Origin: Savitreella phatthalungensis
Lineage: Eukaryota
Direction of reading: 5' to 3'
NCBI GenBank assembly: GCA_051599415.1
Contig: AP039711.1
Span: 62,001 to 126,000, forward strand
DNA length: 64,000 nucleotides
Shown here: positions 30,823 through 57,200 of the stretch, one piece after another
Numbering within the stretch: position 1 is the first letter of the stretch
Layout of the letters: each line of letters opens with the position of its first letter
Program-made: the position numbers and the translations under genes
Notes under the pieces: model-generated
Databases searched by the model: none
Told to the model about the DNA's origin: nothing
What the model saw: only the letters and a program-made list of their open reading frames with translations

Positions 30823-33800
30823 ATGTCCCTGTCGAGCTTTGTCCTCTGGCGAGAGCCTTCAGACGGCCACAGACCACAGGTATGCCGCTTCTTCAGCAGA
30901 CCTCATGCAGATCGGATCGTCGTCAAGACACCTGAAAGCTCTCCATTTGCTGATGCGCAAGATGGATCGGTAGCTCAGACCGCTCTTGGTATCGGCACCA
31001 GTACGACCACCAGAGATAGCCCTCCAGGTCTAAAGGTTGCTCGCAATAAGCGACGCCATCCATTTGAACACGAAGATCAAGCTGAAGATCCTTTATTATC
31101 AGGTCCAGCAACTGCTCGACCACCGAAACGCTTCCGTGTCACCCTTCAAACGGCCTGTGCACCCTTTGCACCAAGCTCGCAGCAGCCCAACAATCCGTCC
31201 AAACAAGACTCTGAGCATGGCGCTGCAGGTCCCTTAGTTGATGATCCTGCAGCAGCAACCCATTCGCCCTATGGCACCCGTCGCCAGGCTAAACCGAGTG
31301 AGAAAGCCAAGGAGAATCGCAAGCAGCGCGCCCTCCTTGAGCTCCACCCGACACCTGTGAAAACGTTATGGAAAATCAAGCCCGTAAGGCGACGTGATGA
31401 CGACTCTCGCTCAATCGGCGAAACGCTCAGAAGGGGCTACTGGCGAAGGGACCTCTCTGACGCCGTCACCCAAACAGCAGACTCTTCAGATGAAGCTAGA
31501 GGCGAGACTGCACCCCACGTCCTTCAAAAGACAAAGGAGATCGCTTCAGGAACAGACCGTGAGCGCGCACGCGAGCTCGAGCGCCTGCAGCCGTCGATCG
31601 CACCGCAAGCAACACAGCCTTCTGCTAGACCTGCAAGCGTCGAATGTGCCGTCCAAACATCTCCATCCAATGCCGCTCATGCCGCCGTCCAGACATCACC
31701 ACAAGCGCACGTGAATGACCCGGAAGATAGACGACATGCCAAAGACTCGACTGAGGACTTTTCTATGAGAAATGCAAGCTTTGCACCAGATCTGTCATTC
31801 GACAACGGGCAGGATGCGCTCATCACAGACTATGACCTTGACCGAGTGACGAAAGAGACGCCAGAGTCGAAGGGGACGCCGACAACCCCAAGCTCATCAC
31901 GTCGCTCGAAGCGAAAGTCAACGCGCACCTACAAAGCTGAGACTCTGGCGGCGTCGACCAGAGGACCTGGACATTCCGTCGGCGGCGGCGGCGGCGGCGA
32001 ACCAGAGGTGCGGATCACTGAGCCAACCGCACTATCGTCCGTCGAAGTTGAAGCGGAAGCGAATGCGAATGCTGACGCCAATGTCGATCACGATGTCGCA
32101 CCTTCGTCTAACGCCGCCGAGACTCCCGGACCAGAGATCGTCGTACTGCGCACTGGAAAACAAGCACAATCAAAAGATGTGGGCACCGAACACACTCCAG
32201 GTGTGAGCACTGCAGGCACTCCAGCGGTGAGCACCCCATCTCCGAGGATCCGTGCAGTCTCAAAAATCCAGCGAAATTTGCCAGACGAGATGCGCGGTCT
32301 GACTGCTGGCGCGCGACGTAAATGGAGAACCGGTCCGATGGTCGAGGTCACTGTCGACCGACGCCACAACAGCCTCAAGTTCCTCCAAACCAAACGCACC
32401 CTCAGGCAGTGGCGTCGTCTGCGGGACAACTATGCACGTCACATTGTCGGCTCCAGCAAGGACGTGGTTGACATCGATGTCGACGTCGATGTCGAGGATG
32501 CCGAAGACGACGTCGTCACTCCTCCAGTCGCCCAGCACGTCCCAGTCATCCCGCCCAGGTCGCCCTCCCCAGTGTCGGAATACGAGACCGAGCGCATCGT
32601 CACGCTCAAGATGCCCAGACTCTACCGGCGCGCGCTGAAGGACAAGAAGCGGCGCGAGCAGGCTCGGGAGCAAGCTGCTAGAGAGGAAGCCTTCGGGCCA
32701 GCAGAGCAGCCTGCTGCAGACGACGCGGCGAACGATGGCGACATCAGCGACGGCGACCCTGATCTCGAGCTCGCAGATCGTCTGCTGGCCGCAGCTGTCT
32801 CACGCGAAGCTGAGTTCCGCGAAGGCGAAGATGGAGCATCGGAGTACTCTGCCGTCTCGTCTGCTCGCGATCGAGACAGTGCTGCCGAGGATGCGCCACG
32901 GGGCAGTGCGCCCTCGTCGGTGAAGCGGACGTCACGCAAGCCAGTCTTGAACGAGTTGATCGAAGCAAAGCGGAACGAATCCGCCAGGGCAAGGAGATCT
33001 CGCCAGCGCTCCGTACGCACAGATCGTCGTGACACGGCTGAACAGCGTCGTGAGCGCCGTCGTCGACGACATGATGCTGATCTAGCTCAGTCAGGATCGT
33101 CTGGAGCAAATCAGCCTGCTGCCAACCTTGACGACGATCTCTCACCGCCGAGCAAATCCCGACACGGCCTCCTGAACAAGCACCGCCGCCAAGAAGAGCA
33201 GCGAGAACTTGATGACGATCTGCGACTGTTACGGGAAGCGTGGGCTGTGAAGAAGGCGGAGATCGAGCGTGCGGAAGATACAGAGTCTGAGGATCTGGAC
33301 GAATCTGAAGACCTAGACTCGTCGTCCGATGATGAAGGCGGCAGCATTAATTCCAGAGTAGCATCACCTCCTGCCACACGACCGCCCCCAGAAGCACTCG
33401 CCAACGTCAAAGCAATCGTCGAGCGCGAGAGAGTGGCGACGCTCGCAGAGCAAGCACGTGCGGCTATCGCTGCCGAGGCGTCTCGACCTCAGCCAGAAAA
33501 AGTCTCCGTCATTCCACTCGCCTCCAGGACGACCAGTCTCGAAGACATTCCTACAGATCCCTCCGAGATCCTCGTCGCTGAGACCCCAGCATTCGACTGC
33601 GATACAACCGTATCGAGCGATCGTCCTGATATCCAACCACGGCGGGAGGAAATCGTTCGCAGTGAAGAGAATGCGACGGCAACTGCACCAGCATCTGAAC
33701 CCGCACCAGCACCAGCGTCAGCACAAGTGATAAAGCCATCGCAGGCACCAGCACCAGTAGTAACACCATCGCAGGCGCCAGCACCAGTAGCACAGCCGCC

Positions 33801-34518
33801 GACAAAACCATTACCGCTCGTCCTACAAGCTGAGCCAAAGGTCAAAACGACAACTCCTCGTCCAGAAATAGCCGCTCTTGTTCCCGCGGCCCTTAGTCAT
33901 GAGAAGACCGACCAGGCAAGATCGTTCCGGCGGATCTACCCTGCGCCTGTACGGCAGCCAGAGCAGGTACCGCCACCTGATCTATTCGCCTATGTGCTGC
34001 CGCCGACGTCAGCCGCTCCGCCGTCACAGAATCTGACGCCCTTGCCTCCAGCAGTCAGGCATCCTCTGCCTGCTTCAACCGCCACCCCGTTGCAGGTGTC
34101 GGGCATCCCGTCTTCGCACAAAGGAGTATCATCCGCATTCGCACTCCCATCCCCAAGTCCAGCTCTCGTCTCAAGTCCGCAACAACCGCATCTGCAACCA
34201 CAACCACAACCCAAGCCAGCGTCGCAACCTGCGCGGATGACGACTGCCGAGCGTATTGAACTAGCTCGTCAGAACATGCTGCTTCGGCAAGCGCAACTGG
34301 CTGCTGCTAACTCCTCGATCCCAAACGCTGGTGTGGAAGCAACTACCATCCACCCGAGACCGACTGCGCAACCCGTCCCGACACCTCCACCGGCAAGGAA
34401 ACAGGGACTCAAACCACATCGACTCGGAGGAATCCCACGCAAGCTCTCAAGCTCAGTCGTCCCAGCAAAAACCAATCCAACGTCAAACCCAGCGACTGAT
34501 CGGCAGGACGCCATCTGA
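30823..34518 (+). CDS. Large low-complexity, mostly disordered orphan protein (1231 aa)
   Basis: 3.7-kb uninterrupted ORF with P/A/S/R/E-rich composition, basic NLS-like clusters and charged helices. No family recognised. Possible GTATGC donor at 30880, so the 5' structure is uncertain. Confidence 0.75.
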   Translation: MSLSSFVLWREPSDGHRPQVCRFFSRPHADRIVVKTPESSPFADAQDGSVAQTALGIGTSTTTRDSPPGLKVARNKRRHPFEHEDQAEDPLLSGPATARPPKRFRVTLQTACAPFAPSSQQPNNPSKQDSEHGAAGPLVDDPAAATHSPYGTRRQAKPSEKAKENRKQRALLELHPTPVKTLWKIKPVRRRDDDSRSIGETLRRGYWRRDLSDAVTQTADSSDEARGETAPHVLQKTKEIASGTDRERARELERLQPSIAPQATQPSARPASVECAVQTSPSNAAHAAVQTSPQAHVNDPEDRRHAKDSTEDFSMRNASFAPDLSFDNGQDALITDYDLDRVTKETPESKGTPTTPSSSRRSKRKSTRTYKAETLAASTRGPGHSVGGGGGGEPEVRITEPTALSSVEVEAEANANADANVDHDVAPSSNAAETPGPEIVVLRTGKQAQSKDVGTEHTPGVSTAGTPAVSTPSPRIRAVSKIQRNLPDEMRGLTAGARRKWRTGPMVEVTVDRRHNSLKFLQTKRTLRQWRRLRDNYARHIVGSSKDVVDIDVDVDVEDAEDDVVTPPVAQHVPVIPPRSPSPVSEYETERIVTLKMPRLYRRALKDKKRREQAREQAAREEAFGPAEQPAADDAANDGDISDGDPDLELADRLLAAAVSREAEFREGEDGASEYSAVSSARDRDSAAEDAPRGSAPSSVKRTSRKPVLNELIEAKRNESARARRSRQRSVRTDRRDTAEQRRERRRRRHDADLAQSGSSGANQPAANLDDDLSPPSKSRHGLLNKHRRQEEQRELDDDLRLLREAWAVKKAEIERAEDTESEDLDESEDLDSSSDDEGGSINSRVASPPATRPPPEALANVKAIVERERVATLAEQARAAIAAEASRPQPEKVSVIPLASRTTSLEDIPTDPSEILVAETPAFDCDTTVSSDRPDIQPRREEIVRSEENATATAPASEPAPAPASAQVIKPSQAPAPVVTPSQAPAPVAQPPTKPLPLVLQAEPKVKTTTPRPEIAALVPAALSHEKTDQARSFRRIYPAPVRQPEQVPPPDLFAYVLPPTSAAPPSQNLTPLPPAVRHPLPASTATPLQVSGIPSSHKGVSSAFALPSPSPALVSSPQQPHLQPQPQPKPASQPARMTTAERIELARQNMLLRQAQLAAANSSIPNAGVEATTIHPRPTAQPVPTPPPARKQGLKPHRLGGIPRKLSSSVVPAKTNPTSNPATDRQDAI

Positions 34519-41740: not shown

Positions 41741-42925
41741 CTAGGCGCGCTTGTCCTTGCCCCGTGGACGGCCTCTGACGAGGAGCTTGTTCTGGTTGTG
41801 TTTTGACCTGCGGGTCTTGTAACCCTTTGTCTTCCATCCCCAGATGGACGAGGTCGGCTTGTTACCTCGACCTCCGCCGTGACCTCCGCCGTGTGGGTGC
41901 TCGTACGCGTTCATCGCCACACCTCTCACGGTAGGTCTGATACCGAGCCAGCGCTTCCTGCCTGCCTTTCCGAGCCTGCGGTGGTGGTGGTCGACGTTTG
42001 AGACGACGCCGACGGTGCAACTCGCATTCGCTGGCACTTTCCTGAGCTCGCCGCTCTGGAGCTTGACGACGGCGTACCCTGTCGCTGGCGAGCTCACAAT
42101 CTGTGCGTGAGTGCCGGCTGCCCGACACAGCTTCGCCGCCCCGTTCTTCAGCAGCGAGATCCCAAACACGACCGTCCCCACAGGCGCCATGTGCAGGGGC
42201 AAACAATTCCCTCGCCGGATCGTCCTCGCAGCCAACATACCAGGGTCGACCTCTCCACCCATGCTCTCCACCATCGCCTTCGGAATCCCACCCAGGAACG
42301 ACTCCACCACATCGCCTTCCCGCAGCCCGTCGCACGCGAGGATGTACGACTTCCTGCCGGTGACCTCGTCCACGATCAGCGCGATGTGTGCCGATCGCCC
42401 TGGGTCGTACTCGATCCGCTCGACCTTGCGCGGTCCTCCTTCGAGTCTCCTGAAGTCGACGAGCCGGAGACGGCGCTTGTGGCCGCCTCCACGGTGTCGG
42501 ACCGTGATCTGTCCCGTGTTGTTGCGGCCGCCCTTGCCGCGCTTCGCCACCGTCAGCGGCAGGAACGCTCGGCCTTTCCACAGATGGTCGTTGATCGGTC
42601 GACGGAGCCACCGGATTCCAGGAGACACAGGTCGGTATTTTTTCAGCTGCAAACCACGCCGCTTTGTCAGGTCACGCGTGTCAAATGTGATGTCGAATGA
42701 GAGGTTTCCGCCAGAGGCCGGGGGTGAGACCCCACTCGGCTGCGATGTCGGTGCGGTTGATGTGGCAGAAGGCTCGTCCACGACGGATGCATAACTCCTC
42801 GATGGCGACAAGGAGGCATTGAGTGGGAGGGGGCGCAGGAGAGTGCGGGCTAGAAAAGTGATTGTAGCTGTTCTTGTAGCTCTAGCTGTCTGACAGCCTC
42901 GAGAGCTTCTCAGAGCCTGAAGCAT
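41741..42925 (-). CDS. RML2: Mitochondrial ribosomal protein uL2m
   Basis: GGRNNTG.ITVRHRGGGHKR, IEYDPGRSAHIAL, GKAGR.RWLGIRPTVRGVAMN..HPHGGG. Arg/Ser/Thr-rich presequence from ATG 42925. Confidence 0.95.
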   Translation of the reverse strand: MLQALRSSRGCQTARATRTATITFLARTLLRPLPLNASLSPSRSYASVVDEPSATSTAPTSQPSGVSPPASGGNLSFDITFDTRDLTKRRGLQLKKYRPVSPGIRWLRRPINDHLWKGRAFLPLTVAKRGKGGRNNTGQITVRHRGGGHKRRLRLVDFRRLEGGPRKVERIEYDPGRSAHIALIVDEVTGRKSYILACDGLREGDVVESFLGGIPKAMVESMGGEVDPGMLAARTIRRGNCLPLHMAPVGTVVFGISLLKNGAAKLCRAAGTHAQIVSSPATGYAVVKLQSGELRKVPANASCTVGVVSNVDHHHRRLGKAGRKRWLGIRPTVRGVAMNAYEHPHGGGHGGGRGNKPTSSIWGWKTKGYKTRRSKHNQNKLLVRGRPRGKDKRA

Positions 42926-43631
42926 CTCTCGCTGAGGAGGAAGCAATCCTCTTGAGCTACGTCTCCTGTTCGAGTGACCGGGGCAGCAGACGGCTGAGAT
43001 GGCGTTCAGCTCGATCGAGCAGCACCTTCTGGAGACTGAAACCTTGAGCTCAGGAGTCGAGACGGAGGTGTGAAGGTAGAAGAAGTCTTTAGGTGTTGTC
43101 TGTGTGACCGTGGTTGTGCGACCTGCCTGATAAGAGCGAGTCGAGTGACATTCCAGCTTTGAGAAATTTCATTCCTGCACGTGCACACTTCCGTTGTGCT
43201 GTGACAGGGTTGTACAGATCATTAATTCCGTGTTTAGACTTCAAATGAAATTTATAAAGGTTTAATGATAGTTCTTAGAAAAGACTATAAATTGCTATTT
43301 CAGATCTAAGGCAGGATTAGAACAGCTATGTATACAGTATAGTAAGGGAAGTGTCGTTGCCACTAGCTATTGGGATCGATGCTGGCAGTACTCGGCCCGC
43401 TATCACTGCCTTCGTCCTATCTCCTTCCCTTTGTGGTCACGATCGAGCTCGTATGTGGGGGTTTGACGAGTCTGAAGGTGTGCCGTTGACCGTCGTTCGC
43501 TACACGTCTGCTCAAGAAGCTCGGCTAGAGGTCGGAAGTGGAGCAGCAGGGCTCCATTGTTGCTGTGATCAACCAAGACTCGTGCTTCTCAGTGCAATGT
43601 GCCCCCGAAGACATTTTCGCACACCCGGGGC

Positions 43632-44576
43632 TTACACAGCGGCCTGGCGCTCGCCGAGGATTTGCCATGCGAATGTTTCCCCGATGCGGAAAGGTTCTCC
43701 GACTTCACCGTCGGGCGGGGTTGGAGTAACGAAACTTTCATGATAGTCAGTCAGAGCACCGACCAACTTCGGCATCTGCCCATTGAACCGACTAGCCGGC
43801 GGGACAACATCGCCACCGTGTACGGAGGCAAAGAAAAGCCGCGGGGTCTCGTACTCTATCGGTATCGTATACTGGAAAGTCATGATGAAAAGTTCGGCCG
43901 ATATGGTCCAGGTGACTGCAGGGTCCGACATCAGAAGCTGCTGTGCTAGCGCAGGCGACATCCTAATGGGCGGCAATTCATAGCCGCCTCCAGACAGACC
44001 AGGACCGCGAAAGCGGTATTGGCAGCACCAGTGATCTGCAGAGTCGTCGTCCGATCGATACAGCTCAATAAATAGAAGACCAGAGTCGGGATTTGGGACA
44101 AATGTTCCTCGGTAGACGTTACAATCCACACGAGTTTCCGAATTGATTGGCGCACACGGCGCAGAGCAATACTTCCTCAGGATGCTCGAAGAGTCGCTCG
44201 CGTCATTTCCTTGGTATTTGAAGGGTCCGGCGGTTGACTGCTTTGGGGCCGCATCTGGTCGACCTGTTGAACCCGCGGTCGGGTACACCACATTCACTGA
44301 CTGAATCTCCTTGTCGAAGGCGAGGTGAAGATGCACTTTCGCTGGTCGCTCTCTCCATGGGACCAGCCATTCGACATACAGGCTTGGTCTAAGGACAAGC
44401 TTGCCGTCGAACTCTTCGGTAATGGCGAGGACTACCTTGTAAGAGACAACCTGCTGCGTGTGACTGAAGCATATAGTGTCGGGCATCGTGTTTGTGACCT
44501 TAGCGCGATCGAATGTTCGACAGAATTCGCGAAGCGCTCTACGCTCCTGATGCTCTTTGACCAGCCTACGCAGCAT
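43632..44576 (-). CDS. Orphan family paralog A (314 aa)
   Basis: Shares CF.H, I.E..DG.L.L.P, LH...DKE, GPFK..G.D, L..YC..PC, DHWCC.Y.F, SPALA..LL..DP..TWT, T.RLF and a C-terminal W(x)QI with 45112-46137 and 48371-49396. First ATG at 44576. Confidence 0.8.
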   Translation of the reverse strand: MLRRLVKEHQERRALREFCRTFDRAKVTNTMPDTICFSHTQQVVSYKVVLAITEEFDGKLVLRPSLYVEWLVPWRERPAKVHLHLAFDKEIQSVNVVYPTAGSTGRPDAAPKQSTAGPFKYQGNDASDSSSILRKYCSAPCAPINSETRVDCNVYRGTFVPNPDSGLLFIELYRSDDDSADHWCCQYRFRGPGLSGGGYELPPIRMSPALAQQLLMSDPAVTWTISAELFIMTFQYTIPIEYETPRLFFASVHGGDVVPPASRFNGQMPKLVGALTDYHESFVTPTPPDGEVGEPFRIGETFAWQILGERQAAV

Positions 44577-44620
44577 CGTTCCGGAGGTGTGATGTGTATG
44601 GGGCACGTATCCTGCCTCTT

Positions 44621-44705
44621 GTTATATCAAGCCGCAGCGTTATGCAAGCCCCTCATTCTCGGAGCGCCTATGATGACATGTGGCTTCTGCAACCGTCTTG
44701 TATGT
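44621..44705 (-). promoter_or_regulatory. Family-conserved upstream block (TATA-like plus CCCTCAT and GGCTTCTGCAA motifs), paralog A
   Basis: Aligns by eye with 46174-46260, 49461-49541 and 48077-48119. Confidence 0.7.
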
Positions 44706-45111
44706 CCCAATCTGGCGATGATCTCTCCGATGACCATAAGGCACGGCGTATGCTGAAGGAGACAAGCTTGACGGACGTTGCACACTGGAGGCGATAGGCC
44801 GTCTTGTGCTATTTTGGGATGCAGCGTCTTGCGTCACTTAGCATTTAGCTAAATGCAGCCGCAGCCGCAGCAGATGCACGATCGATCGAGCAAGCATCAA
44901 GATGGATGGTGGCAACGCGAACAAGCAGGACTTCGTCTCCGTCCTGTCGGCTGGGGAGCTAGCATTCCTCGCGTTCACTAATCAAAAACAGCTCGCTTTG
45001 TAGTCTCGCGGCGAAAGACGCACAGCGCTTCGCTGTTGTACGTGGCAAGTAGGCGAGCGTAGTGAAAGAGATAGTCTATAGAATGAGCATTACTACTGGC
45101 GATGATGATGA

Positions 45112-46137
45112 TCAGGAGATTTGGATCCACTCGCTCGGCTTACAGGTGGCACTCAGGAGTTGTTCAGAGTACACGGTGTAGGTCGATGGCTCGATCTCGT
45201 ACGCCAGTCCTGACTGTGGCCGTTCGATCGACCTGATAGATAGACAAATGGCATCCTTTGCACGTACAGTGTCGTAGAACAGCCGGGCGGTCTGTAACTT
45301 GCGCGGTATGGAATGCTTCGAATCCTTGAAGATGAGTTGGGCCGAAAAAGTCCAGGTAACAGCGGGATCCCTCTTGAGAAGCTGCTCTGCAAGAGCCGGC
45401 GAGATCTGTGTCTTTGGCAGTCGACACACACTTCTGAGCACCGGCAGAAGCGGAGACGGGAAATTGTAGGAGCAGCACCAGTGATTTGCATCATCCATGC
45501 TCGTAGTCGATACCTGTGTGAGCTCCGGGGCCCTAAAGATATTTTCCTGTCGGTCGCAGGTCAGACAGTTAGGTATCATGAAGGTCCTCATGTCCTGAGT
45601 TCTTTCAGAGCAGCACCCCCGGGTCGGCGTACGGCAAGGATTCGAGCAGTAACGCTCCAAGAAGCCTGGGAAACCGCTCTGGTCGAGGCCATGTTTCTTG
45701 AATGGACCTGGTCGTTGCCACCCAGCTGGTCTTTCCCAGATGGGCGGGATCTTGCCATCAGACATCGTCGCTGTGGACTCTTCTCCGATGCAGGTCTCGG
45801 CAGGGCTCCCACGAGTTCCTTGGTCCACGACGCTTGCCGACCGCACTTCCTTGTCGATAGCAACATGCAGTCGAACGGCATAGGGTTGATCTTTCACATC
45901 ACATGACCACTCGACCTCCAGGACCGGTTCGAGCAACAATATGCCGTTGTCAACATCTTCGATGACGCAGAGGGCAATTCCGTACCACCACATCTTGTGC
46001 ATGTGTTCAAAGGTCAAATCCATTGGGTGGTTGTTTCTCATGAGCGCACGACCAGATTTTTGGCCAATGCTACGATGTTCTTTGAGCTCTCGAGCTTTTC
46101 TGCGCTCGGCTTCGTCTTTCATGAACTCGCAAAGCAT
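45112..46137 (-). CDS. Orphan family paralog B (341 aa)
   Basis: Same motif series: SGRALM, FEHMHK, GPFKKHGLDQSGFPGFLERYCSNPC, NHWCCSY, SPALAEQLL..DPAVTWT, TARLFYD, WIQI. Confidence 0.85.
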   Translation of the reverse strand: MLCEFMKDEAERRKARELKEHRSIGQKSGRALMRNNHPMDLTFEHMHKMWWYGIALCVIEDVDNGILLLEPVLEVEWSCDVKDQPYAVRLHVAIDKEVRSASVVDQGTRGSPAETCIGEESTATMSDGKIPPIWERPAGWQRPGPFKKHGLDQSGFPGFLERYCSNPCRTPTRGCCSERTQDMRTFMIPNCLTCDRQENIFRAPELTQVSTTSMDDANHWCCSYNFPSPLLPVLRSVCRLPKTQISPALAEQLLKRDPAVTWTFSAQLIFKDSKHSIPRKLQTARLFYDTVRAKDAICLSIRSIERPQSGLAYEIEPSTYTVYSEQLLSATCKPSEWIQIS

Positions 46138-46173
46138 GGCTGCTGAAGTCTGAGATGCATGACTTCTCTCATC

Positions 46174-46260
46174 GTCCTTATAAAGGATGCCGTGGAGCCT
46201 TTCGCAAACCCCTCATTCGGTGCACACTTATGACAATGACCTTTGCGGCTTCTGCAATGG
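46174..46260 (-). promoter_or_regulatory. Family-conserved upstream block, paralog B
   Basis: Plus strand reads gtccttataaag...gcaaacccctcatt...gcggcttctgcaa, i.e. TTTATAAGGAC on the minus strand ~45 bp before the ATG. Confidence 0.7.
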
Positions 46261-46364
46261 CGTGATGATAGATGAAGACTAATGCTTGATTACTACCTGT
46301 GCTATCTATGTATGACGCGAGCTGAGTGAGTGTACAAGATCTCAGTCGGGGAGTCGTTCGAAAC

Positions 46365-47000
46365 TTAGGCGCGTCGCTGCTTCCACGCGGACGGTGTCGT
46401 AGTATAGCTGAGTAGACTCAAACTCCTTAATCTTGCTTTTGTCGAGGTCCAGCAGTACGAGTCTGACAGAGATCGTCTAAGTGCCAGGCGAATCGCCACT
46501 GAAGGCGCGACCGACACTGCTAGCAGCTCGAATAAGCCGTACCAGGATAGGCCGTAGTCGGAATAGTCGCTTGAGTAGGGACAGCAGCAGTGCGTTTCTG
46601 ATCTAGGAGACGGTGCCAAGCTTCGATTGACCGGATCACTTGAATCGGAGTCGCCAGTTGTCCTGTCTTGACCGGCATTCACCTTGACAGGCGTTCTGCC
46701 CATGGTTGTTCCGAAGGTCGTGGTACGGCCGGCAGTCTCTTGATGACTGCCTCTGCAGAGCTCGTCCTCATCGTTGAAGCCTCCAGGAATGTGCATGCTC
46801 GTACACCGGAAAATCGGTGATGCGGTGCTCGGGTCTGGGCAATCATTTGTCACGTCTAGAAATCCGCCATGGTCAATGCCAGCCATGGCGAAGGGAGCTT
46901 CCTCTTGAGAGCTCAGTGTTGTAGCCGATGTAGGCCGTCTGCCGTCTGGTGCTGGAATGGTTAACAGGGAGACCTGCTGCTGTGCCCTGCTCAGCGTCAG
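46365..47000 (-). pseudogene. Orphan family pseudogene C, 5'-truncated; its internal segment forms the left arm of inverted repeat 1
   Basis: The frame opens after a TAG at 47003: ...EAPFAMAGIDHGGF..V.NDCPDP...HCCCPY...GLFEL....APSVA..L...CWT. These are degenerate family motifs, and the N-terminal third is missing. Confidence 0.7.
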
Positions 47001-47244
47001 CTATCCTCGGCCTGAAAATCGCCAGGGCTGGTATCGATCATGGAGAATCTCCAGGCGTCTTGACAAGTTATTGTCCGGACCCGTGCACCGCATCACCGAC
47101 ATTCCGGTGCATGGGCATGCACATCCCTGAGAGCTCCAACGATGAAGAGGAGCTCAGCAGAGACGGTCACTCAGACACTGCCGGCTGTACCACGACCTTT
47201 GGCACAACCCTGGGCAGAACGCCTGTCCTGGTGAATGCCAGTCA
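46669..47244. repeat. Inverted repeat 1 (arms 46669-46891 and 47019-47244, 127-bp spacer); candidate hairpin RNA
   Basis: Hand alignment gives ~225-bp arms, about 80-82% identical with one 3-nt indel. The right arm reads AGIDHGESPGVLTSYCPDPC on the plus strand (family motif). Confidence 0.93.
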
Positions 47245-47428
47245 CTGCCGTGCCCTCAGGTAAATCTGATAGTCAAGTGGCGAGATTGTGTGCCAGAAAG
47301 TGAGATTATCTGAGTATTGCTTCGGTATTTAGCGACAGATCGCCTGCCGAGCGCGATCCTCTCGTTGGATGTCAAAGGGAGACGAGAAAGAAGGAAATGT
47401 TATGACATGAGTTAGGGGAAAGTCTCAC

Positions 47429-47605
47429 TTATATATTCTCTGACTGGTGACGAATGACCTGTGACGACTGACCTGTGACGTAATGAACTTGCTGGTAGAA
47501 CACACACGCGCGTATACGAAGGTGCGTGTCTGCGTACACGTGAGTGAGCCTGTAAGTGAGTGAGTGAGTGAGTGAATGCATGAGTTGAGGAGTGAGTGAG
47601 TATGC
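47429..47605 (-). promoter_or_regulatory. Candidate promoter upstream of inverted repeat 1 (TATATAA, tandem TGACG elements, CGCG core, (ACTC)n)
   Basis: ttatata at 47429-47435, tgacctgtgacg x2 ending in TGACGTAA (~47454-47483), ACGCGCGT 47506-47513, (GAGT)n ~47540-47600. Confidence 0.4.
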
Positions 47606-47869
47606 AAATAGCCTGACCTATTTCGTCCTCATCGCGGATGCACCTTAAACTTATCCACACTCGCGCGCGTATTCTATTGCACTGCCTAGTTGTCACGTAA
47701 GAGTCCACCGTACAGTCGTCATTATAGCCAGCAGCACAGCCAGAAGGTCGTTGTCAGAGCGATCGCTTCAATGATCCTTGGGGGGCGTCGTCGAATCGAT
47801 CGTTGCCGCACTCATCAAAGTCGTTGTCGAATGGGGTGTATCCTTGTTTGCACGTTTGCACGCTTGAAC

Positions 47870-48119
47870 GCAGCATTCACATACGCGGACGGTCTACCTC
47901 GAATGTCGTTGTCGTCCATGTGCACTCTGAACAAGCATGGCAAACACTCGCATTAAAGCGTGCTCTTCTCACACGCTGCTGTATCGCGGTCACGTGATTT
48001 TTGATGAGTGTGGGACCAGACTTTCGACCGAGCTTCCGAAGGCACTCACCGCTTTCGACGGATGACCGCTCCATAGACCTAGCTCTGACGACTTGTGGCC
48101 TTCTGCAACCGTCTGTATG
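47870..48119 (-). pseudogene. Orphan family 5' remnant (promoter block plus N-terminal codons)
   Basis: Exact 15-mers shared with paralog promoters: acctagctctgacga (48077 = 49509) and cttctgcaaccgtct (48100 = 44684). Translation LRKLGRKSGPTLIKNH resembles paralog B RSIGQKSGRALMRNNH. RPSAYV (another frame) resembles paralog A RPSLYV. Confidence 0.7.
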
Positions 48120-48370
48120 CTTCACTCGAGCGATTGTCGCCCGGACGAGTGCATCTTCAGGGCGTCCAACAAGTGATATAGGAGAATATCTATATATGCA
48201 TGATACAGTATGTACACGTGAACGTCCTTTGCGCACTGTTCAGTATGTATGCAGCATGTTGCGCCTTTGAGATTCTGGCCAACAAGTCTTCCTTGACGGA
48301 TGCACGAGCAAGCCTGTGGGGGTTGACAATCAAGCATATATGATGAGCATTAGCTACGGGGCAAGGACAA

Positions 48371-49396
48371 TCAGTTGATTTGCGTCCAGGTGAGCTGCCT
48401 GTAAGCAATTTGTTCTGGATCGTCAGCATTCGGGGACTCAGTCGATGGATCCATCGGCCCGGCCGGCTGCGGCTGTGTTGTCGATCGACGAGACTTTCTA
48501 ATGGCGTCACGTCCACGTACAGAGTCGAAGAACAGCCGGGCGGTGTGGAGCTTGGGCGGGACCCTGCCAAGCTCGGTCATGCTGAGGCCGACCGAGAAAG
48601 TCCAAGTGGTGTCGGAATCCGTGTCGAGCAGCTTTTTCGCCATCGCTGGCGCGATCTCTATCTTCGGCAGCCGAGTCAAGCCCACGATCAGGCGAGCATG
48701 CGCGGGTGGGAACCAGTACGAACAGCACCAATGATCATCACTGTCCAAGCTTGTGATCGATACATCTGTGAGTAGCGTTGCGGTTGTCAAACCATTGTGT
48801 TCGGTGGAGACCAAGCCTTCGCGTGAGACGTAGATCCTGATGTCGCCCATCCTGTTGGGGCATAGACCCCACGGCCCCGGACTGCATGGATCCGCGCAGT
48901 AAGCCTTTAAGAAGCCTGGAAAACCGTCCTGGTCGAGACCGTATCTCTTAAACGGCTCCGCTGCTCGCGCCGGAGCTGGATCAGCCCGACCGGGCGTCGA
49001 CCCTACCCGGGAATCAACTTTTTCACCGTGGGCACTGTTCGTAGCACCAGGCTTCGTCGCTTCAGTCCTGCTTCCCGGCTCTGCTTGTCCTGTGCTAGGG
49101 TCCAGCACACTTGCTGAACGCGTCTCCTTGTCGATGGTAACATGCAGTCGAATGGAATCAGGTTGGTGCTTAGGCTCAGTGAGCCACATAATGTGCATAG
49201 CCGGCTCGAGGACGAGTTTGCCATCGTCTTCTTCAGTGATGAACAGGCCGATCCGATAATACACAATCTTGTGCATGTGTTCGAAGCACATCTCACTCGG
49301 GCCGAGTTTCTTCATCAGTGCGCGACCAGACATTCGACTAAGGTCGCGACGTTCCTTCCACTGTCGACGTTCGATGGTCGTGCAGTCTTCCGGCAT
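48371..49396 (-). CDS. Orphan family paralog D (341 aa)
   Basis: SGRALM, CFEHMHK, EPFKRYGLDQDGFPGFLKAYCADPC, DDHWCCSY, APAMA..LL..D..TTWT, TARLFFD, WTQI. The 3' flank atgagcatta(g)ctac is shared with paralog B. Confidence 0.85.
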   Translation of the reverse strand: MPEDCTTIERRQWKERRDLSRMSGRALMKKLGPSEMCFEHMHKIVYYRIGLFITEEDDGKLVLEPAMHIMWLTEPKHQPDSIRLHVTIDKETRSASVLDPSTGQAEPGSRTEATKPGATNSAHGEKVDSRVGSTPGRADPAPARAAEPFKRYGLDQDGFPGFLKAYCADPCSPGPWGLCPNRMGDIRIYVSREGLVSTEHNGLTTATLLTDVSITSLDSDDHWCCSYWFPPAHARLIVGLTRLPKIEIAPAMAKKLLDTDSDTTWTFSVGLSMTELGRVPPKLHTARLFFDSVRGRDAIRKSRRSTTQPQPAGPMDPSTESPNADDPEQIAYRQLTWTQIN

Positions 49397-49460
49397 GTCT
49401 GTCTCCTGAAGCCTGAAATGTTCGTGAGTCGAGTGCGGTGCTATGCGTCTGGCGCCGTAC

Positions 49461-49541
49461 TCTTATAAAGTATGTCGCAGCATTGTGCAAAAGCCTCATG
49501 CTGAGCGTACCTAGCTCTGACGAGATGTGACTTCCGCAAAC
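49461..49541 (-). promoter_or_regulatory. Family-conserved upstream block, paralog D
   Basis: cttataaag...gcagcattgtgcaaaagcctcat...acctagctctgacga...gtgacttccgcaa. Confidence 0.7.
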
Positions 49542-49720
49542 ATCGACCACATCTCACTTCAGTCGTGCGAGTTGCAGTACTTCGAATCGTTGGAAAATTA
49601 GGGTAAGCTGGCCCGTCGTCGATTCGCAAGCGAGCGGCATGAAGATGGTAGCAATGCGGGAGGCTTCAGATCCACGCAAGCAGTACATCCCCTAGGTATT
49701 GGCCACAAATTGCCATCGGG

Positions 49721-50388
49721 ACAACGCATGGTAGCCTTGGTTCACGCCCAACATCAGCATCAACATCAACTCCCAGTAACACTGGTGCGTTCGATATATC
49801 GGGATAGATCCTGCCGGCTTTCCGGGGATTCTTCGACTTTACTGCGAGCAACCATGCTCCGCCCGGTCGCCGGGGTGCTCCGACACTTGGGTCCTCTCGA
49901 ATTTATACTATGCTACTGCAGCGCGCAATTCCCAACAAGGTTCCACGGGAAGGTCTTGGGGTCTCGGGGCAACGCTCGACAGAGCTTCAGCTCAAGCCAG
50001 CATGAGCCACACCTCAGCTCGTGGCGAGAACCACACCGTGGAGAAAAGTATTTCGGAAGTCGGATTTTCCTCTGAGCTGTTCTCGCCACGAGCTGAAGTG
50101 TGATTCGTGCTGGTTTGAATCGGAGCCCTGCCGATCGTTGTCCCGAGACCTCAAGACCTTCCTGGGGATACTCGGTGGGAACTGCGCGCTGCAGTAGCAT
50201 AGTGTAAATTCGAGAGGACCCAAGTGTCGGAGCACCCCGGCGACCACGCGGCGCATAATTGCTTGCAGTAATGCCAAAGAATCCCCGGAAAGCCCGCAGG
50301 ATCGACAAATTATATCGAATGGACCAGTGCTACCGGAAGTCAATGCTGATGCTGATGCTGGGCGTGAACTGAGGCTGCCAAGCGTTGT
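49721..50388. repeat. Inverted repeat 2 (arms ~49721-50047 and ~50064-50388, ~16-nt loop); candidate hairpin RNA
   Basis: Hand alignment gives ~325-bp arms, about 83% identical. A perfect 41-bp core (49865-49905 vs 50205-50245) is followed by one mismatch and 21 more perfect bp. The arms encode GIDPAGFPGILRLYCEQPC (+) and VDPAGFPGILWHYCKQLC (-), the family motif. Confidence 0.95.
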
Positions 50389-50600
50389 GAGACTGTCATG
50401 TGTCGTAGCCATCAATGTTCGTGCTGGGTGTGGCTCAATTGGGCTGTGCAGACGACGCAGGAGCGGATTCTTCGCTTGCTCCTGCGGGCACTCGTTCAAC
50501 ATCACGTCCGATTTGGTTCCTTAGGGCAACATGTGCTTTGAAATCGTCTGATCTACGCTGTGACATGAGTAAGGAGGCGACAGAGTCCTTAAATATACTG
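50064..50600 (-). pseudogene. Orphan family pseudogene E (frameshifted; right arm of inverted repeat 2 plus upstream TATA-like element)
   Basis: The minus strand reads STGPF then frameshifts to VDPAGFPGILWHYC. TATATTTAAGGAC at 50597-50585 resembles paralog B TTTATAAGGAC. Confidence 0.65.
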
Positions 50601-50789
50601 TCGACGATGACAGATGAGCTTGTCAGGTGGACACTCTCAAGCATGCGTGTCGTTGAGCGTGTGAGCGTGCGTATCGGTGCGCTTGTGGGTGTACGCATGA
50701 GTTGATGGGCAGGACGGTCTGGTATGCCGGCGGACACAGACGAGTTTGTCAAGTCTACACTGTTGCGTGACGTGCGTCGGTGAGTGTGT

Positions 50790-50859
50790 CAGAGAGACAG
50801 GGAGAGGCAGAGAGAGGAAGAGAGAGAGAGCACTGTGTGTGTGTGTGTGTGTGTGTGTG
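50790..50859. repeat. GA-rich tract followed by (TG)13 microsatellite
   Basis: agagagacagggagaggcagagagaggaagagagagagag, then tgtgtg... at 50834-50859. Confidence 0.9.
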
Positions 50860-51976
50860 GTGACATTGACGCACGGGATCGCGTCTGCATTGACTCAAAT
50901 TCAACGTCACACTCACGCTCGCATATGAGGAACATGCTTAACTTCGTTGACGCGTATACCCGCTATGCGAGAAACGACCTCGGTTGTTGAAACGCGTCTG
51001 TTTGTCTCGTCGAGATAACTTTAGCTATTGACCAAGGTCATGTCATGCGCATGGACAAGATCGTGTGTGCTACTGCTTCATGCTCACGGATATACTGGAT
51101 GACCCGCACGATGAAGCAAGTGAAGATGAATCTGCTCGCGTCTGGACCTGATGACGTCGGCGTGTGCTTGAAAAGGCGCGTGTAGACGTGTTCGAACTCC
51201 ACAGGTTGTCCTGCCTATGCACTTGAGCACGCGTGGACAGGTACACCAGTGCATCAGACACACTGGGACACGTGGACGACAACGCTTGTCGCGTGGAGGC
51301 TCAAGTATCTGTACATGGACACGAGGCCCGTCACGCGAGAACACGAGGGCGTTGGCGCGTACAGGAGTGGCAGAGTGAGAGGGGTTTGGACTCCGCAGGT
51401 TATCCTACCTCTATGCCCACGGATACACAAGAGGGAACACACGACCAAGTATGTTGCAGAGATCATCGATTGCCTGCACATGTATTTGAAGCTGCTCACG
51501 TCAGATTACGAAGACACCGGCGTGCGCGCTCGTCCTGTCGTGTGCTCGTAACGCAATTAGTCCGACACTTTCGCTCACCGCCCTAATCTGGATTATGTAG
51601 AAGGTGAACTAAAGGGCAGAAATACAAATAAGAGGTCGACCAATACTCCAGAGGATCGCTGGCCAGAAAACACGTGGACCTAGCGTACAGATTGACGGGA
51701 TTTTTATTTTTATTTTTCACTTTTACTTTTACTTTTGCTTCTTCCTTATGAGAGAAACAATCGATCGCTCCAGAACCAGATCAAGAATCTGGATTCTAGA
51801 AGTGGAAGTGAAATCTCAGGCATGCATTTACCCGAAGCAGCGGGCTGACCGGGTAAAGGGGTTTTACACGTACGTACGTCCACTTGCACGCGGGTGGATG
51901 GGGGAACACGCATTCAAAGGATAAATGACGCGTGAGCGAGCTTGCTCGATTACTCGATCGCGAAGGGGTTTTTGCA

Positions 51977-52075
51977 CGGAGACTACTTGCCATACTTAGC
52001 CTGATGCTCGGAGGCTACTTGCAATACTGGGCCTGAAGCTCGGAGACTACTTGCCATACTTGGGCTGATGCTCGG
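51977..52075. repeat. 32-bp minisatellite, 3 copies
   Basis: CGGAGACTACTTGCCATACTTAGCCTGATGCT / CGGAGGCTACTTGCAATACTGGGCCTGAAGCT / CGGAGACTACTTGCCATACTTGGGCTGATGCT, then CGG. Confidence 0.92.
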
Positions 52076-52337
52076 GTGAAGTCTAGGTAGTTACTCTAGC
52101 TGCGTGACTTACTTGCCTGAATATTTGCCTAAGTTTCCGCGGGGGGTGCTTGCGAGGATACTTGCGTGGATGCTTGTGAAGCCTGTATTGCCATGCACTG
52201 GACAGAGCGTTTCAGAGTAAACACGAAAACGGCAATTTAGGAGTCTGGTCTATCGCCATGGAGACGTGAGCTGACGTCTTGTTGTAGCAGATGAGCTGGA
52301 TCACGGAACTGCCTGTGTGCTAGCAACTCGGAGAACG

Positions 52338-52347
52338 CTAAATTTAG
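52338..52347. promoter_or_regulatory. Rlm1/MEF2-type MADS-box site CTA(W)4TAG upstream of alpha-glucan synthase
   Basis: CTAAATTTAG is an exact consensus match, ~1.86 kb upstream of the ATG. Confidence 0.35.
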
Positions 52348-53359
52348 AGCATATGTGAAGGAAATATGAACAGAGGGTGTTTAACTCACTCGAGTAACTG
52401 TGATGGAATGCCACGAGGAGGAGGCATGCAGCCAAGTCTATCTGCAAGTCTGAAACGGAGAGCACGCTAGACCGTCAACAGACTTTCTGATATTCGACCC
52501 TGTCTAGATGGGAATTTGCAGATGTTTCTATATTTGTCACGCCAATTGAGCACGTTCAAAAAGGAGTATTTCATCATTCTTGTTTCATCGGCTCGCCCGG
52601 CTGAACCGATGCTGTTTTGAATAGAAAACAAAATTTCTCGTTCAAGGATGATCTGCACTGATCCGTTAGCAACGATTTGACAGCGGGACTACTTTCTATA
52701 CCACGTTACCTGAATTCATACTATTTTTGCTCAGACTTGATCAATTTCTTATGACAGAATCATTCCTACTCTGGTGACTTCCGAATATACTCTATATACT
52801 CCAGCCAGAATAGAATTTTTGTCATGCACGCGTCGAATTGGCATTTTGTAAATAGATTGGATCTGACAGGTGTAAAATCACGTAAAATCTATTCTTAGCG
52901 CAAGGAGGAACTCAACAATCCTCATCAACAGTCATTTCAACCGGCCATACATCTCAAAGGTGAAATAACAAAAGTCAATTAGTCCCAATCTCCACCAGGT
53001 CTGTATCATCATCGACTTGGGCCATGACCTGCAACTGCAACTCATCGGCTCGCAAAAGTTCTAACCACAGGGGGCAAAGATAACAAGGGAGAAGATCTGA
53101 CTCTTCCAACCCAGCTCGACCAGACTTCACTTTGACTCATGCTGGAATACTCGTTCAACAACATGACGACGCTCGGGTAACACTCTCTCCTGTGTAAGTG
53201 ATTGGGTTGAGTTGAATTGAGTTGACTTTGAAGAGACCTTTCTGACCTCCTCCCACATCGTCTAAACCTCTTCATCTTATTTCCCCTGTGGTATAGGCAT
53301 GCGCTACACTGCTGAGATCATCGCAGCAAAGCATAGGTCAGTCAAGCACACTCCTGTGG

Positions 53360-53900
53360 ACTTCAATTCAGTTCAGTCTAATTGAGTTTAGTTCAGTTCA
53401 GTTGGGTTCAGAACACTTCAGGACAGTTCAGCTGGGAACTCTTTCTAGACTGTGTGGATATCCCTTCCCCCCCTGTCAGACTCTCGGCAGCCCCCGTCTT
53501 AGCCTATTCTCTCTCTCCCTGGCTCTACTCTCTCTCCCTTGCCTTCTGGTCTACGTCTGTCACTCTGAGCTCACTCTCAATCTCTCAGTCCCGGTCTCAT
53601 CCTCTGGGTCTCACTCACTCTCTCTCACTTACACGCTCACCCTCGATCGAACGCGTGCTGTGCTGTGCTCTGCTCTGCTCTGCTCTGCTGTGCTTGCGAA
53701 CGTACGTGCACCTGCTACGCCAGGGATCGTGACTCTCTCTAGGTGTCTCTCTGTCTCGATCCTACTATCACTCTTACTCTCACTCTTACTCTCACTCTTA
53801 CTCTTACTCTCTCTCTCTCACTCTAGCCCTCACTCCTACCGCGATCGATACGTACCTTCCTGCTCCAACAGCGACACACTCACCCTCTCAGCGCACGCTC
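53360..53900. repeat. Pyrimidine-rich simple-repeat leader (TTCAG, CT, TGCTC, CTCACTCTTACT units)
   Basis: ttcagttcag near 53365-53410, gctctgctctgctct near 53660-53690, ctcttactctcactcttact repeats 53765-53820. Confidence 0.8.
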
Positions 53901-54203
53901 AGAAGAAACTCATCATTTCCTCCCATACAAAACCACAGACGCAAGTCCAAGCCCTTCGACCGGGCAGAAGGACATCGCTCAATCACCCTTTTTCCACAAA
54001 CGCGCGCGCGCCAACAATCTTCACCAGACTCAATCTCTTCTAGGTGTGAGAGACTGGCAAGCGCAAGAAGGGAATCAGACCCATTCCTTTCTTCACTCAC
54101 ACACATACACCTGCTGATCCCTGCGATTGAGCTCTTCCTCGAAAGAAAAAAAGGGACGTTCGCTCTTTCCTTCCGCTCGCTCGCCGTTCGTTAGTCCTGC
54201 GCC

Positions 54204-57200
54204 ATGAAGGCCTTTGCGGCTCTGGCCACGACCTTCCTCCTCGCCGGAGGAGGTTCTGGCTTCCTACCGCTCGCCTCAGCAGCACCCTACGACCCGCGCG
54301 AGGCATCATGGAACTTCAACATGAATCAGCAGGCCACAAATCCGCTCGACTATACCACCAGCTGGCCAAATCACCAGTACATGGCATCGCCGGACAACTG
54401 GCGATTCCCCGTCTACACCGTCATCATGGACAAATGGGTGGACGGTGACCCGCGCAACAACGATATCAACGGTACAGTGTTCGAGTACGACTACTACGAG
54501 ATTGGTCTCCGTGCAGGCGGTGACGCAATCGGTCTCTACGACTCTCTCGACTACCTCCAGGGCATGGGAATCAAGTGCGTCTACGTCAGTGGTACAATCT
54601 TCCTCAACCAGCCATATCAGGCAGACCAGTACTCCCCGCTCGACTACACCATTCTCGACCACCACCAGGGCACGATCGACGAATGGCGCACAGTCATCAC
54701 TGAGATGCATCGCAGAGGCATGTACATCATGCTTGATATGACCGTCGCAACCCTTGCAGACCTCGTCGGATTCAAGGGTTACCTCAACACCTCCACACCT
54801 TTCTCCCTGTACGAGCACGATGCAGAGTGGAAGACCGAACAGGTCTACCCGGACTTCCGCTTCACCAACTCTTGGAATTCGTCCTGCACGATGCCGATGT
54901 TCTGGGGAGACGACGGAGGACCGGTCGCAATCGAGGTCGCAGGCTGCTACTCATCAGATTTCGACCAGTACGGTGACACGGAAGCTTTCGGTGTCCATCC
55001 CAACTGGCAGCGTCAGCTCTCCAAGTTCGCCTCCGTTCAGGACCGTCTTCGTGACTGGGATCCTGTGGTCGCCTCCAAGCTCAATCACTACGCCTGTCTC
55101 CTCATCGAGGCGCTCGACATTGATGCATACCGTCTCGATAAGGCCACTCAGATGACTGTCGGCTTCCTGGCACAATGGTCAGCAGCTGTAAGAACTTGCG
55201 CGGCAAAGTTCAACAAGAAGAACTTCTTCATTCCCGGAGAAATCACAGGTTCGGACTCGTACGGAAGTATCTACCTCGGCCGTGGCAGACAACCCGATCA
55301 GCGTCCTCGTCCCGCGATTGCCTACAACATGACAGGTGATTCGTCCCAGAGCGAGTACTACCTTCGTGCTAAGGGACTGAATGCTCTCGACGCATCCGCC
55401 TTCCAGTACTCTACCTACCGTGGCTTCACTCGTTGGCTCGGTCTGGACGGATACCTGTCTGTGCCATTCGACGTGCCCGCTGATTTCGTTGACGCATGGT
55501 CAGCTTGGCTGCAGAATGAGGATCTCGTCAACCCGAACACGGGCAAGTTTGATCCTCGTCACATGATCGGCATGACCAACCACGACGTGTTCCGCTGGCC
55601 GTCCCTGCCAAACGGTACGCAGAAGATGGCGCTTGGTGCAATGATCACCGAGCTTGTCATCCCTGGCATTCCGCTTCTCTACTATGGAGAGGAACAGGAC
55701 TTCTACGTGCTCGACAACACCGCAGATAACTATCTGTTCGGTCGTCAGTCGATGGTCTCGAGCATTGCTTGGTGGCTGCACGGCTGCTACGTTGGCGACT
55801 CGACCCAGTACCCGGACCTGCAATTCGGTGCTGCAAAGTTCGGATGTGGCGACTTCTGGAACGCTCTCGACCACAGAGACCCGTCCGCGCCTGCGCGTAA
55901 CGGTGTCATCCGTTGGCACGAGCTGCGAGACCAATATCCGGTGCTCAGGGACGGTTTCTGTCTGACGAACCTCAATAACTGGACGACAAAGTACCTACTG
56001 CCAAACTCGATCGCTGACTCCAACACTACTGTCGGACTCTGGTCCGTCCACCGTCAGGCTTGCGGCGACCAGTCCTTCTCTGGAGGTGCTGGCAACCAAG
56101 ACATTTGGTTCCTCTACTCCAACTTGAACCAGAGCAAGTCTTTCGTGCAGGACTGCTCCAACAGCAACGGTATCTTCGCACCCTCCGGCACCACATTCGC
56201 GCCTGGCACCACCGTTCAGAACCTTGTCTACCCCTTCGAGACTTATGCGCTCTCGACCGGTGTCAACGCCTCCGTCGGCTGCATCTCTCGTATCGACATG
56301 GACGCTTGGGACTACAAGGTCCTCGTTCCCTCGAACAAGTTCCTGCAGCCTCGTGCGGTCATCACCAAACTTGTTCCGGGACATGACGCTAGAATTCAGA
56401 GCAATTCGACGGATGCGCAGACCATGACGATTCGCGTCGAGTTCAGCACCAAGATGGACTGTGACAGCGTCGCAAAGGCCATGACCATCGAGAGCAAGAC
56501 GCTTCAGGGCAGCAACGCTACGCTCGGTGCCTACACATGCGGCACCGTCACTGGAGCACAGCAGTACCTCGTCGGGTCACCAGTCTCGAACTTCTACATC
56601 TCACGAAGCGTTAGCAACATCTACGACGGTATCTTCCGCGTCAAGCTTGCTTCTGCCTCCGCATCCTCCTCTGACGTCAACGCCACCTCTGGGTTCGACG
56701 CCTGGATGTTCCGTGTCGGCAAGTCGGACAACCCGATGGTCTTCCCACTTACTGCCAACTACACCAACACCGCGATGAGCAAGAAGAATGGCGTCCTCCA
56801 GATCGAGGCAAATGCAGCCGGCGCAGACCTCATGAGGTACTCGCTTGACTGGGGATCCACCTGGTCCAATTGGACAACGTATTCTGGTACAGGTGCTAAG
56901 CAGCTTCCGTCCTACACCAAATGGGTCGGCACAAAGGAGCAGAGCTGGCAGGGCGACCACGCTATCGTCCAGTACTATTCCAAGATTGCAGGCAGTCAGA
57001 ACCACCAGCAGCACGCCGATACTGGTGTCGCTCATCGCTCGTTCCCTCACATGTTCATCATGGGTCCTTTCAACGAGTGGGGCTACGATGCCGGTGCACG
57101 AAACCGTCTGCTCCAGGACGAGAATTCTAACTGGCGCATCGGCTTCATCTCAGAAGCATACCCGTCCAAGCTTCAGTTCAACGTCTGGGGCATCAACCCT

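Follow-up and report, generated by a model that had tools for sequence, protein, structure and literature searches.

Live and broken genes in an array between RML2 and ags1

The 64,000-nucleotide stretch of Savitreella phatthalungensis DNA analysed here (contig AP039711.1, positions 62,001 to 126,000; hereafter the window) holds an array of about 7 kb on the minus strand (43632..50600), in which three live paralogs of one gene family (A, B and D) are found together with two dead copies (pseudogenes C and E, psiC and psiE) and one 5' remnant. Each dead copy contains a long inverted repeat, IR1 in psiC and IR2 in psiE. An earlier note on this DNA had placed the array between RML2 and ags1 and proposed that its genes are held in check by small interfering RNAs (siRNAs) made from the two repeats. 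The interval is correct, but the array is not directly adjacent to ags1, from which it is separated by about 3.5 kb with other transcribed sequence inside. Open reading frames (ORFs) were called with the standard code and ATG starts. The array comprises the following features.

43632..44576, minus strand: paralog A, intact ORF, 314 aa
45112..46137, minus strand: paralog B, intact ORF, 341 aa
46317..47371, strand undefined: contig of run X2, 1055 nt, across psiC and both IR1 arms, depth 12.6
46357..46928, minus strand: psiC, interrupted by stops and frame breaks, profile positions about 133-301 (hidden Markov model, HMM, and tblastn)
46669..46891: left arm of IR1, sense part of psiC on the minus strand
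46892..47018: spacer of IR1, 127 bp
47019..47244: right arm of IR1, inverted copy, with the family motif on the plus strand at 47021-47113
47403..47460, minus strand: core promoter block upstream of IR1, TATATAA at 47435-47429
47990..48230, minus strand: 5' remnant without an ORF, copied from the block found upstream of A, B and D
48371..49396, minus strand: paralog D, intact ORF, 341 aa
49721..50045: left arm of IR2, motif on the plus strand at 49792-49881 (profile E 1.2e-6)
49865..49927: near-perfect duplex core of IR2, 63 nt, pairing with 50183-50245 with 1 mismatch
50046..50064: loop of IR2, 19 nt
50065..50388: right arm of IR2, sense part of psiE, motif on the minus strand at 50303-50229 (profile E 0.004)
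50561..50620, minus strand: core promoter block upstream of IR2, TATATTTAAG at 50597-50588

Contigs from other runs were compared with the window. X1 is a genome run, whose contigs (12.7 Mb in 5767 records) were matched at 80% likeness with a filter that may omit records. X2 consists of contigs from the same sample as the source run, automatically labelled as DNA and read here as RNA. X3 is a low-depth run from another study with pieces of a close relative, 95-99% alike, which fall on A, D, the remnant region, ags1 and both IR2 arms and leave IR1 without cover. X4 matched only 92 nt of ags1 at less than 90% likeness.

A, B and D belong to an orphan family

As the earlier note had seen, A, B and D are intact and strongly diverged. 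They align over their full length at 33-41% amino-acid identity and 49-59% pairwise nucleotide identity, and their alignment contains 65 invariant columns, including YC..PC, HWCC.Y, TWT and RLF. Identity by codon position decreased from the second to the first to the third position. The ratio of non-synonymous to synonymous divergence (dN/dS) was 0.21-0.31 in pairs with A, where synonymous divergence (dS) is saturated, and 0.56-0.62 between B and D, where dS is about 0.9. The order of identity by codon position and the dN/dS values of 0.21-0.62 indicate that A, B and D are, judging from their substitution patterns, real coding genes under moderate to relaxed constraint. Compared with the X3 relative, D showed four non-synonymous (Y332H, P317S, T306R and A105S) and two synonymous changes. 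Three of these four non-synonymous changes are located in the poorly conserved C-terminal tail (48371-48480). All three proteins are hydrophilic (grand average of hydropathy, GRAVY, -0.28 to -0.58), and their N-termini, inspected by eye, are charged, helical and not signal-like.

The family is an orphan, as had been claimed: it has no Pfam domain and no relatives in about 15 billion public proteins. With E up to 1 allowed, the single Pfam match for A, B and D was Myticin-prepro (E 0.2), at chance level and under its cut-off. A profile search, run on 1.84 billion sequences that represent those 15 billion proteins, matched four proteins, three of which were A, B and D themselves; the fourth, P0004, was rejected as an animal immunoglobulin-repeat/retroelement protein that scored via six repeats. 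A word-based protein search with the family query recovered the query alone, and a protein atlas held no usable relative of the family. When metagenomes were scanned with the family alignment, 192 pattern stretches were matched and none was confirmed, and no metagenome contig matched a 26-nt piece of the IR2 core exactly. An AlphaFold model of A, made from the three-sequence alignment, was beta-rich and of poor quality, with a mean predicted local distance difference test score (pLDDT) of 50.4. With this model, Foldseek found nothing in the PDB at E<=0.001 (the top match was a p53-like domain, E 0.009, TM 0.23/0.33), and the best match of VIA-align against the PDB reached Z 7.0, with generic beta-sandwiches that are within its stated background. 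Since the structural matches are within background, no function can be drawn from them for the family. Pfam and profile searches of A, B and D did not place them in the known driver families wtf and Spok.

Two dead copies fold back on the conserved motif of the family

The derivation of the repeats was examined by comparing a profile HMM built from A, B and D with six-frame translations. On the minus strand, psiC matched the profile at 46928-46800 (profile positions 133-176), 46601-46476 (215-255) and 46503-46357 (253-301, E 2.7e-6), and these matches are spread over three frames, with stops. Its inverted copy on the plus strand matched at 47021-47113 (146-176, E 1.4e-5). In psiE, only the motif segment is recognisable (profile positions about 146-175). 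Profile matches on all arms thus bear out the claim that both dead copies were turned into long fold-backs of the best conserved motif of the family. All four arms come from a protein-coding family (E 1.2e-6 to 0.004), as expected of hairpin loci, and with arms of about 225 nt (IR1) and about 334 nt (IR2) both repeats are able to form extended hairpins. Both psiC and psiE have the hallmarks of duplicated (non-processed) pseudogenes, being homologous to the live paralogs and having stops, frame breaks and truncation.

Gapped alignment of the IR1 arms gave 187 matches, 34 mismatches and 5 gap events (81.0% likeness by blastn), and that of the IR2 palindrome (49721-50388) gave 273 matches, 58 mismatches and 2 gap events (81.3%). 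Compared with 30 dinucleotide shuffles, predicted fold energies had z values of -26 for IR1 and -36 to -39 for IR2. The longest perfect duplex in IR1 is 17 bp, and the IR2 core holds perfect runs of 41 and 21 bp; IR1 has no similar counterpart of this core (p 0.8). Three positions of the IR2 core differ in the X3 relative, each on a single arm, which fits either conversion in this lineage or decay in that of the relative. A 162-aa alternative-frame ORF in IR2 (50014-50502) was rejected as a gene candidate, with constraint in no frame. Six nucleotides outside the right arm of IR1, at 47250, X2 reads A (depth 12.6/12.6, one contig) and the window and X1 read G; this difference may be an error or a variant and, not being A-to-G, is unlike A-to-I editing.

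The copies are arranged head-to-head in IR1 and tail-to-tail in IR2. This is the geometry described in the earlier note, except that the IR2 loop measures 19 nt instead of about 16 nt. The earlier note took it as a sign of two independent origins; the opposite geometries indicate that separate segments were inverted. The equal blastn divergence of the arms (81.0% vs 81.3%) points to the same age and fits a single rearrangement burst. Both fold-backs may even have come from one complex replication-based rearrangement. Within the window there are five inverted pairs of at least 40 nt: three are pieces of IR1 and IR2, and two, near 29.3-30.1 kb, are matches of CAT microsatellites. Microsatellites aside, the window has no long inverted repeats other than IR1 and IR2.

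Upstream blocks and the 5' remnant

A TATA-like element lies upstream of each hairpin, 191 nt (IR1) and 209 nt (IR2) from the arm edge, as the earlier note had noticed. The blocks around these elements are similar over about 60 nt, including 13/15 matching positions some 20 nt downstream of the TATA box. Their local alignment scored 30, whereas none of 200 shuffles exceeded 25 (z 6.2), a value that mononucleotide shuffles may overstate in an AT-rich patch. Another upstream block is common to A, B, D and the remnant, with z values of 5.6-13.4 in five of the six pairs and 1.8 for B vs the remnant. In a MAFFT alignment the two kinds of block fall at the same position, suggesting that both may descend from one ancestral promoter. 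The 5' remnant was also recovered: 48000-48230 is similar to the blocks found upstream of A (z 13.4) and D (z 9.5), and a weak N-terminal trace is present (B residues 22-36, E 0.05). An N-terminal coding remnant in the hairpin leaders was considered and dropped; tblastn gave a weak trace (A residues 10-50 at 47364-47257, E 0.17) that the profile did not recover.

Simple repeats lie immediately upstream of both hairpin promoters. Those of IR1 (47447-47601) are (GTGA)n and a 14-nt unit present 2.8 times, and those of IR2 (50640-50867) are (AGAGAGGCAG)n, (TG)13 and a 24-nt unit present twice. X1 contigs are cut near these simple repeats, at 47546-47587 and 50788-50867.

IR1 is probably transcribed

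X2 depth was 586 over an ERV-like gene and RML2, 475 over ags1, and 0-21 between them. Its contigs stop where genes do (one, at 42945, ends 20 nt before the start codon of RML2), and one contig joint has the GT..AG form of an intron. From the depth contrast, the ends at gene limits and this joint, we infer that X2 represents RNA. Contigs cover A (43261-44563) and D (bins 48215-49777, contig 49083-49560), and the 1055-nt contig covers psiC with both IR1 arms; relative to the TATA box, its near end lies 58-64 nt downstream. IR1 is therefore probably transcribed, presumably from the minus strand on which its promoter block lies; a contig alone is no proof of a single transcript. Cover was zero over B (44568-46130) and IR2 (49778-50819), and an uncovered part proves nothing. 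B, the next gene downstream of the covered IR1, is uncovered, and D, the next downstream of the uncovered IR2, is covered; this is a pattern in one sample and not evidence.

No close target in the window or the X1 contigs, and no coding constraint on the arms

For 21-mers of IR1, the best match outside the repeats within the window had 4 mismatches. For those of IR2, a CAT microsatellite was matched with 2 mismatches, and every other match had at least 3. The weak match of the arms to the live paralogs was confirmed, nucleotide identity to A, B and D being 57-73% even over the best motif. According to the earlier note, direct targets would have to be closer paralogs elsewhere or ones since lost. 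No closer paralog was seen in the X1 contigs, in which 6 of the 5767 records matched at >=80%, all of them at >=99% and all representing the locus itself. Target complementarity, a trait expected of hairpin RNA (hpRNA) and endogenous siRNA loci, is thus missing from the window and the X1 contigs.

Arm divergence is about 0.2 in both repeats, vs a B-D dS of about 0.9. The inverted repeats are accordingly much younger than the paralog splits, and the hairpins would never have matched A, B and D well. Since these genes were already far diverged when the repeats formed, only the parent or lost copies could have been targets.

Transitions and transversions between the arms numbered 38:20 in IR2 and 22:12 in IR1, about 2:1. 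No excess of C-to-T or G-to-A changes was seen between the arms, and a mutation bias like that of repeat-induced point mutation (RIP) was accordingly dropped. In all 12 frame readings, dN/dS between the arms was 0.59-1.04, with coding constraint in none. Mismatches compatible with G:U pairing were even between the strands (11 vs 14 in IR2, 10 vs 10 in IR1). Depletion of indels was dropped as a sign of constraint, gaps and substitutions being inconsistent (5/34 in IR1 vs 2/58 in IR2). In comparison with X3, eight listed substitutions in IR2 comprised four that break and four that make a Watson-Crick pair, and none was mirrored on the other arm. Over the 300 nt of the IR2 pieces there were 12 differing letters and 1 gap, compared with 13 differing letters and 2 gaps over the 297 nt of a non-coding piece (48072-48368) and 15 differing letters over 814 nt of coding sequence in A and D. 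IR2 is thus changing at the non-coding rate, as far as such small numbers can tell. Taken together, the want of a close target, the age of the repeats and the neutral-looking change of the arms do not support the idea that the paralogs are held in check by hairpin siRNAs.

Neighbouring genes and the placement of the host

The named neighbours in the window are housekeeping genes, encoding Dna2, glycogen synthase, Sir2, Rad51, the mitochondrial ribosomal protein L2 (RML2) and Rpc34, and an alpha-glucan-synthase-like protein of 2447 aa (ags1). The nearest named relative of RML2 is that of Protomyces lactucae-debilis (73% identity), and the remaining fungi reach about 60% or less; this makes the host a Taphrinomycetes-like yeast. 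Taphrina deformans and Schizosaccharomyces are reported to have Argonaute and Dicer (PMC4159005), and by analogy with these relatives RNA interference (RNAi) would be plausible in this host.

Between the array and ags1, the stretch 51151-53400 has no ORF of at least 80 aa and is matched by X2 contigs at 51151-52321 (depth 20.9) and 52845-53336. The GT..AG joint in X2 (55 nt, 53333 to 53389) is located here, and the stretch probably gives a spliced transcript that is non-coding or carries a short ORF. It contains a 32-nt tandem repeat in 3.2 copies (51973-52075). An X3 depth spike of 233 with many loose ends at 51696-51736, on an AT-rich 12-nt repeat, most likely reflects unrelated low-complexity matches from other organisms in the run. 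Elsewhere in the window, long ORFs at 16600-19068 (822 aa) and 30823-34518 (1231 aa) and further ORFs at 1885-3342 (485 aa) and 6583-8169 (528 aa) have no Pfam family at E<=1e-5. An Rfam scan of 42900-54300 gave no match, and a tRNA scan of the whole window gave no tRNA. A bacterial promoter and terminator scan was discarded, as it does not apply to a fungus and its counts equalled the shuffle level.

Interpretation of the fold-backs

The anatomy of the array is confirmed and unusual. The lack of a close target in the window or the X1 contigs, together with the unconstrained arms, leads us to favour, with somewhat better than even confidence, the view that IR1 and IR2 are decaying fold-back pseudogenes of about the same age, both drifting and one still transcribed from its own promoter. 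The family would be a species-restricted tandem set of non-secreted, beta-rich proteins, with three working members and at least three dead ones (psiC, psiE and the 5' remnant). psiC and psiE would each have been disrupted when their middle part was duplicated in inverted orientation, as a fold-back, and each broken copy would have kept its promoter, so that psiC would still be transcribed into an RNA of at least 1 kb. With both arms present, this RNA could form an imperfect stem of about 225 bp, whose arms would have drifted without constraint since their formation. The repeats would then be rearrangement scars, at most weak or former sources of double-stranded RNA (dsRNA), and not an active suppressor of A, B and D.

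Several observations weigh against this view. The TATA block of about 60 nt is common to both hairpin loci and absent from A, B, D and the remnant, and IR1 appears as a single contig in the RNA-like X2 at a depth similar to A and D. The IR2 core is non-random, a run as long as this occurring in 0.055% of 20,000 permutations (p 0.0006), and it could be a maintained siRNA core or duplex instead of a gene-conversion tract. Both long repeats lie inside one 7-kb family with different geometries, for which chance alone is unlikely. In addition, hairpin RNA loci evolve fast, so that neutral-looking change is compatible with function, and our evidence covers the window and the contigs of the runs compared with it.

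These observations bear most directly on a reading in which IR1 and IR2 are active endogenous hairpin-RNA loci, whose transcripts from the TATA promoters would fold and be diced. The siRNAs would act in cis, by seeding RNAi-dependent heterochromatin or by interference that reaches adjacent paralogs regardless of sequence identity, or in trans via the IR2 core. We regard this as rather unlikely. Hairpin-induced heterochromatin occurs in fission yeast, and the end of the IR1-spanning X2 contig 58-64 nt downstream of the TATA box, the block common to both loci and the 63-bp core are what such loci would display. Both IR2 arms are also retained at about 95-96% in the relative from the other study, and the X2 cover pattern, in which B is uncovered beside the expressed IR1 and D is covered beside the uncovered IR2, points the same way in one sample. 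The Argonaute and Dicer reported for T. deformans and Schizosaccharomyces would provide the machinery (PMC4159005). Against this, no trans target was found by window 21-mers, motif identity or the X1 contigs, the perfect duplex of IR1 is at most 17 bp, and the arms display neither compensatory changes nor strand bias. IR1, A and D are moreover expressed together in the X2 sample, which argues that the array is not silenced as a block. As for the IR2 core, it may equally be a recent gene-conversion tract. The narrower idea of a fungal counterpart of animal hpRNA loci, derived from the fast-evolving orphan family, retained next to it and controlling the array in cis or via a maintained IR2 core, seems to us quite doubtful.

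The repeats might instead be relics of a finished conflict, once selected to silence parent or recent copies that may have been harmful or dosage-sensitive and are now lost, a history that we consider unlikely. It would account for two separate inverted segments in one family and for dead copies and a promoter-only remnant, possibly a lost target, interleaved with live genes. It also agrees with the young age of the repeats relative to the paralog splits, which leaves only parent or sister copies targetable, and with the fast evolution of the family (B-D dN/dS about 0.6; four non-synonymous vs two synonymous changes in D relative to X3). Drosophila offers a precedent, in interleaved hairpin loci and targets and in hairpins born beside their progenitor (PMC10317233). 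Sequence alone cannot part such relics from purely mutational scars, and the inverted duplications destroyed their parent genes, which is a sufficient cause of inactivation. It is barely credible that IR1 and IR2 represent an artefact of assembly or a fold-back transposon with many copies. Palindromes can be assembly chimeras, and X1 contigs do break within IR2, at 49876-49894 and 50205-50245, whereas a single X2 contig spans the entire IR1 and X3, from another study, has separate contigs for the IR2 arms, each with the letters of its own arm. A transposon would have further copies, of which the 5767 X1 records hold none at >=80%, and here the arms carry the family motif. Decaying fold-back pseudogenes remain the reading that we prefer.

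Comparison with known systems

If the repeats are scars, the array is a clear record of gene birth and death in a compact, repeat-poor genome, with three live and three dead copies and two intragenic fold-backs of the same age. If either is processed by RNAi, this would be a natural fungal gene family that makes its own hairpin RNA, so far known mainly from flies and plants, and a tractable yeast-like system for the origin of such suppressors. If RNAi control acted in cis or through the core, the family would stand out, within a yeast of the Taphrinomycotina, as a set of genes that are selfish or sensitive to dosage. Keyword searches of the literature did not find a fungal gene family interleaved with hairpins of its own coding sequence, a result that does not show absence from print.

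The closest parallel is with the Drosophila hpRNA loci (Nmy/Tmy vs the Dox family; hp58, next to its progenitor; the interleaved hp-pncr009/825-Oak). These also arose by inverted duplication of a gene segment, beside or among young, fast-evolving paralogs, and have an mRNA-type promoter and a long transcript capable of forming a hairpin (PMC10317233). Here, in contrast, siRNA-grade complementarity to a target is missing from the window and the X1 contigs, the arms are about 82-85% alike and not near-perfect, and the putative hairpins lie within a broken parent gene of a fungal host. The locus should not be filed as an hpRNA system, as it has the structure and the family derivation of one and lacks the target complementarity.

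Young plant MIRNA genes arise by inverted duplication of target genes. They resemble the present repeats in the fold-back of founder-gene coding sequence and in the decay of the arms, in which IR2 keeps one well-paired sub-segment. Unlike in plant MIRNA genes, the 63-bp core of IR2 has no sign of processing or of a target, and gene conversion explains it equally well. The fungal meiotic drivers wtf and Spok are lineage-restricted, fast-diverging and multicopy, with many dead copies. The present family is likewise lineage-restricted, fast-diverging and multicopy, with dead copies, and differs in that A, B and D are without a Pfam family, hydrophilic and modelled as a beta-sandwich. Finally, inverted repeats derived from pseudogenes give rise to endogenous siRNAs in animals, rice and trypanosomes (PMC2708354, PMC3447711, PMC3616710). 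The array resembles them in having a pseudogene with an internal inverted repeat that is probably transcribed. Their targets are closely related parental genes; at this locus, the nearest paralogs are 49-59% identical overall.

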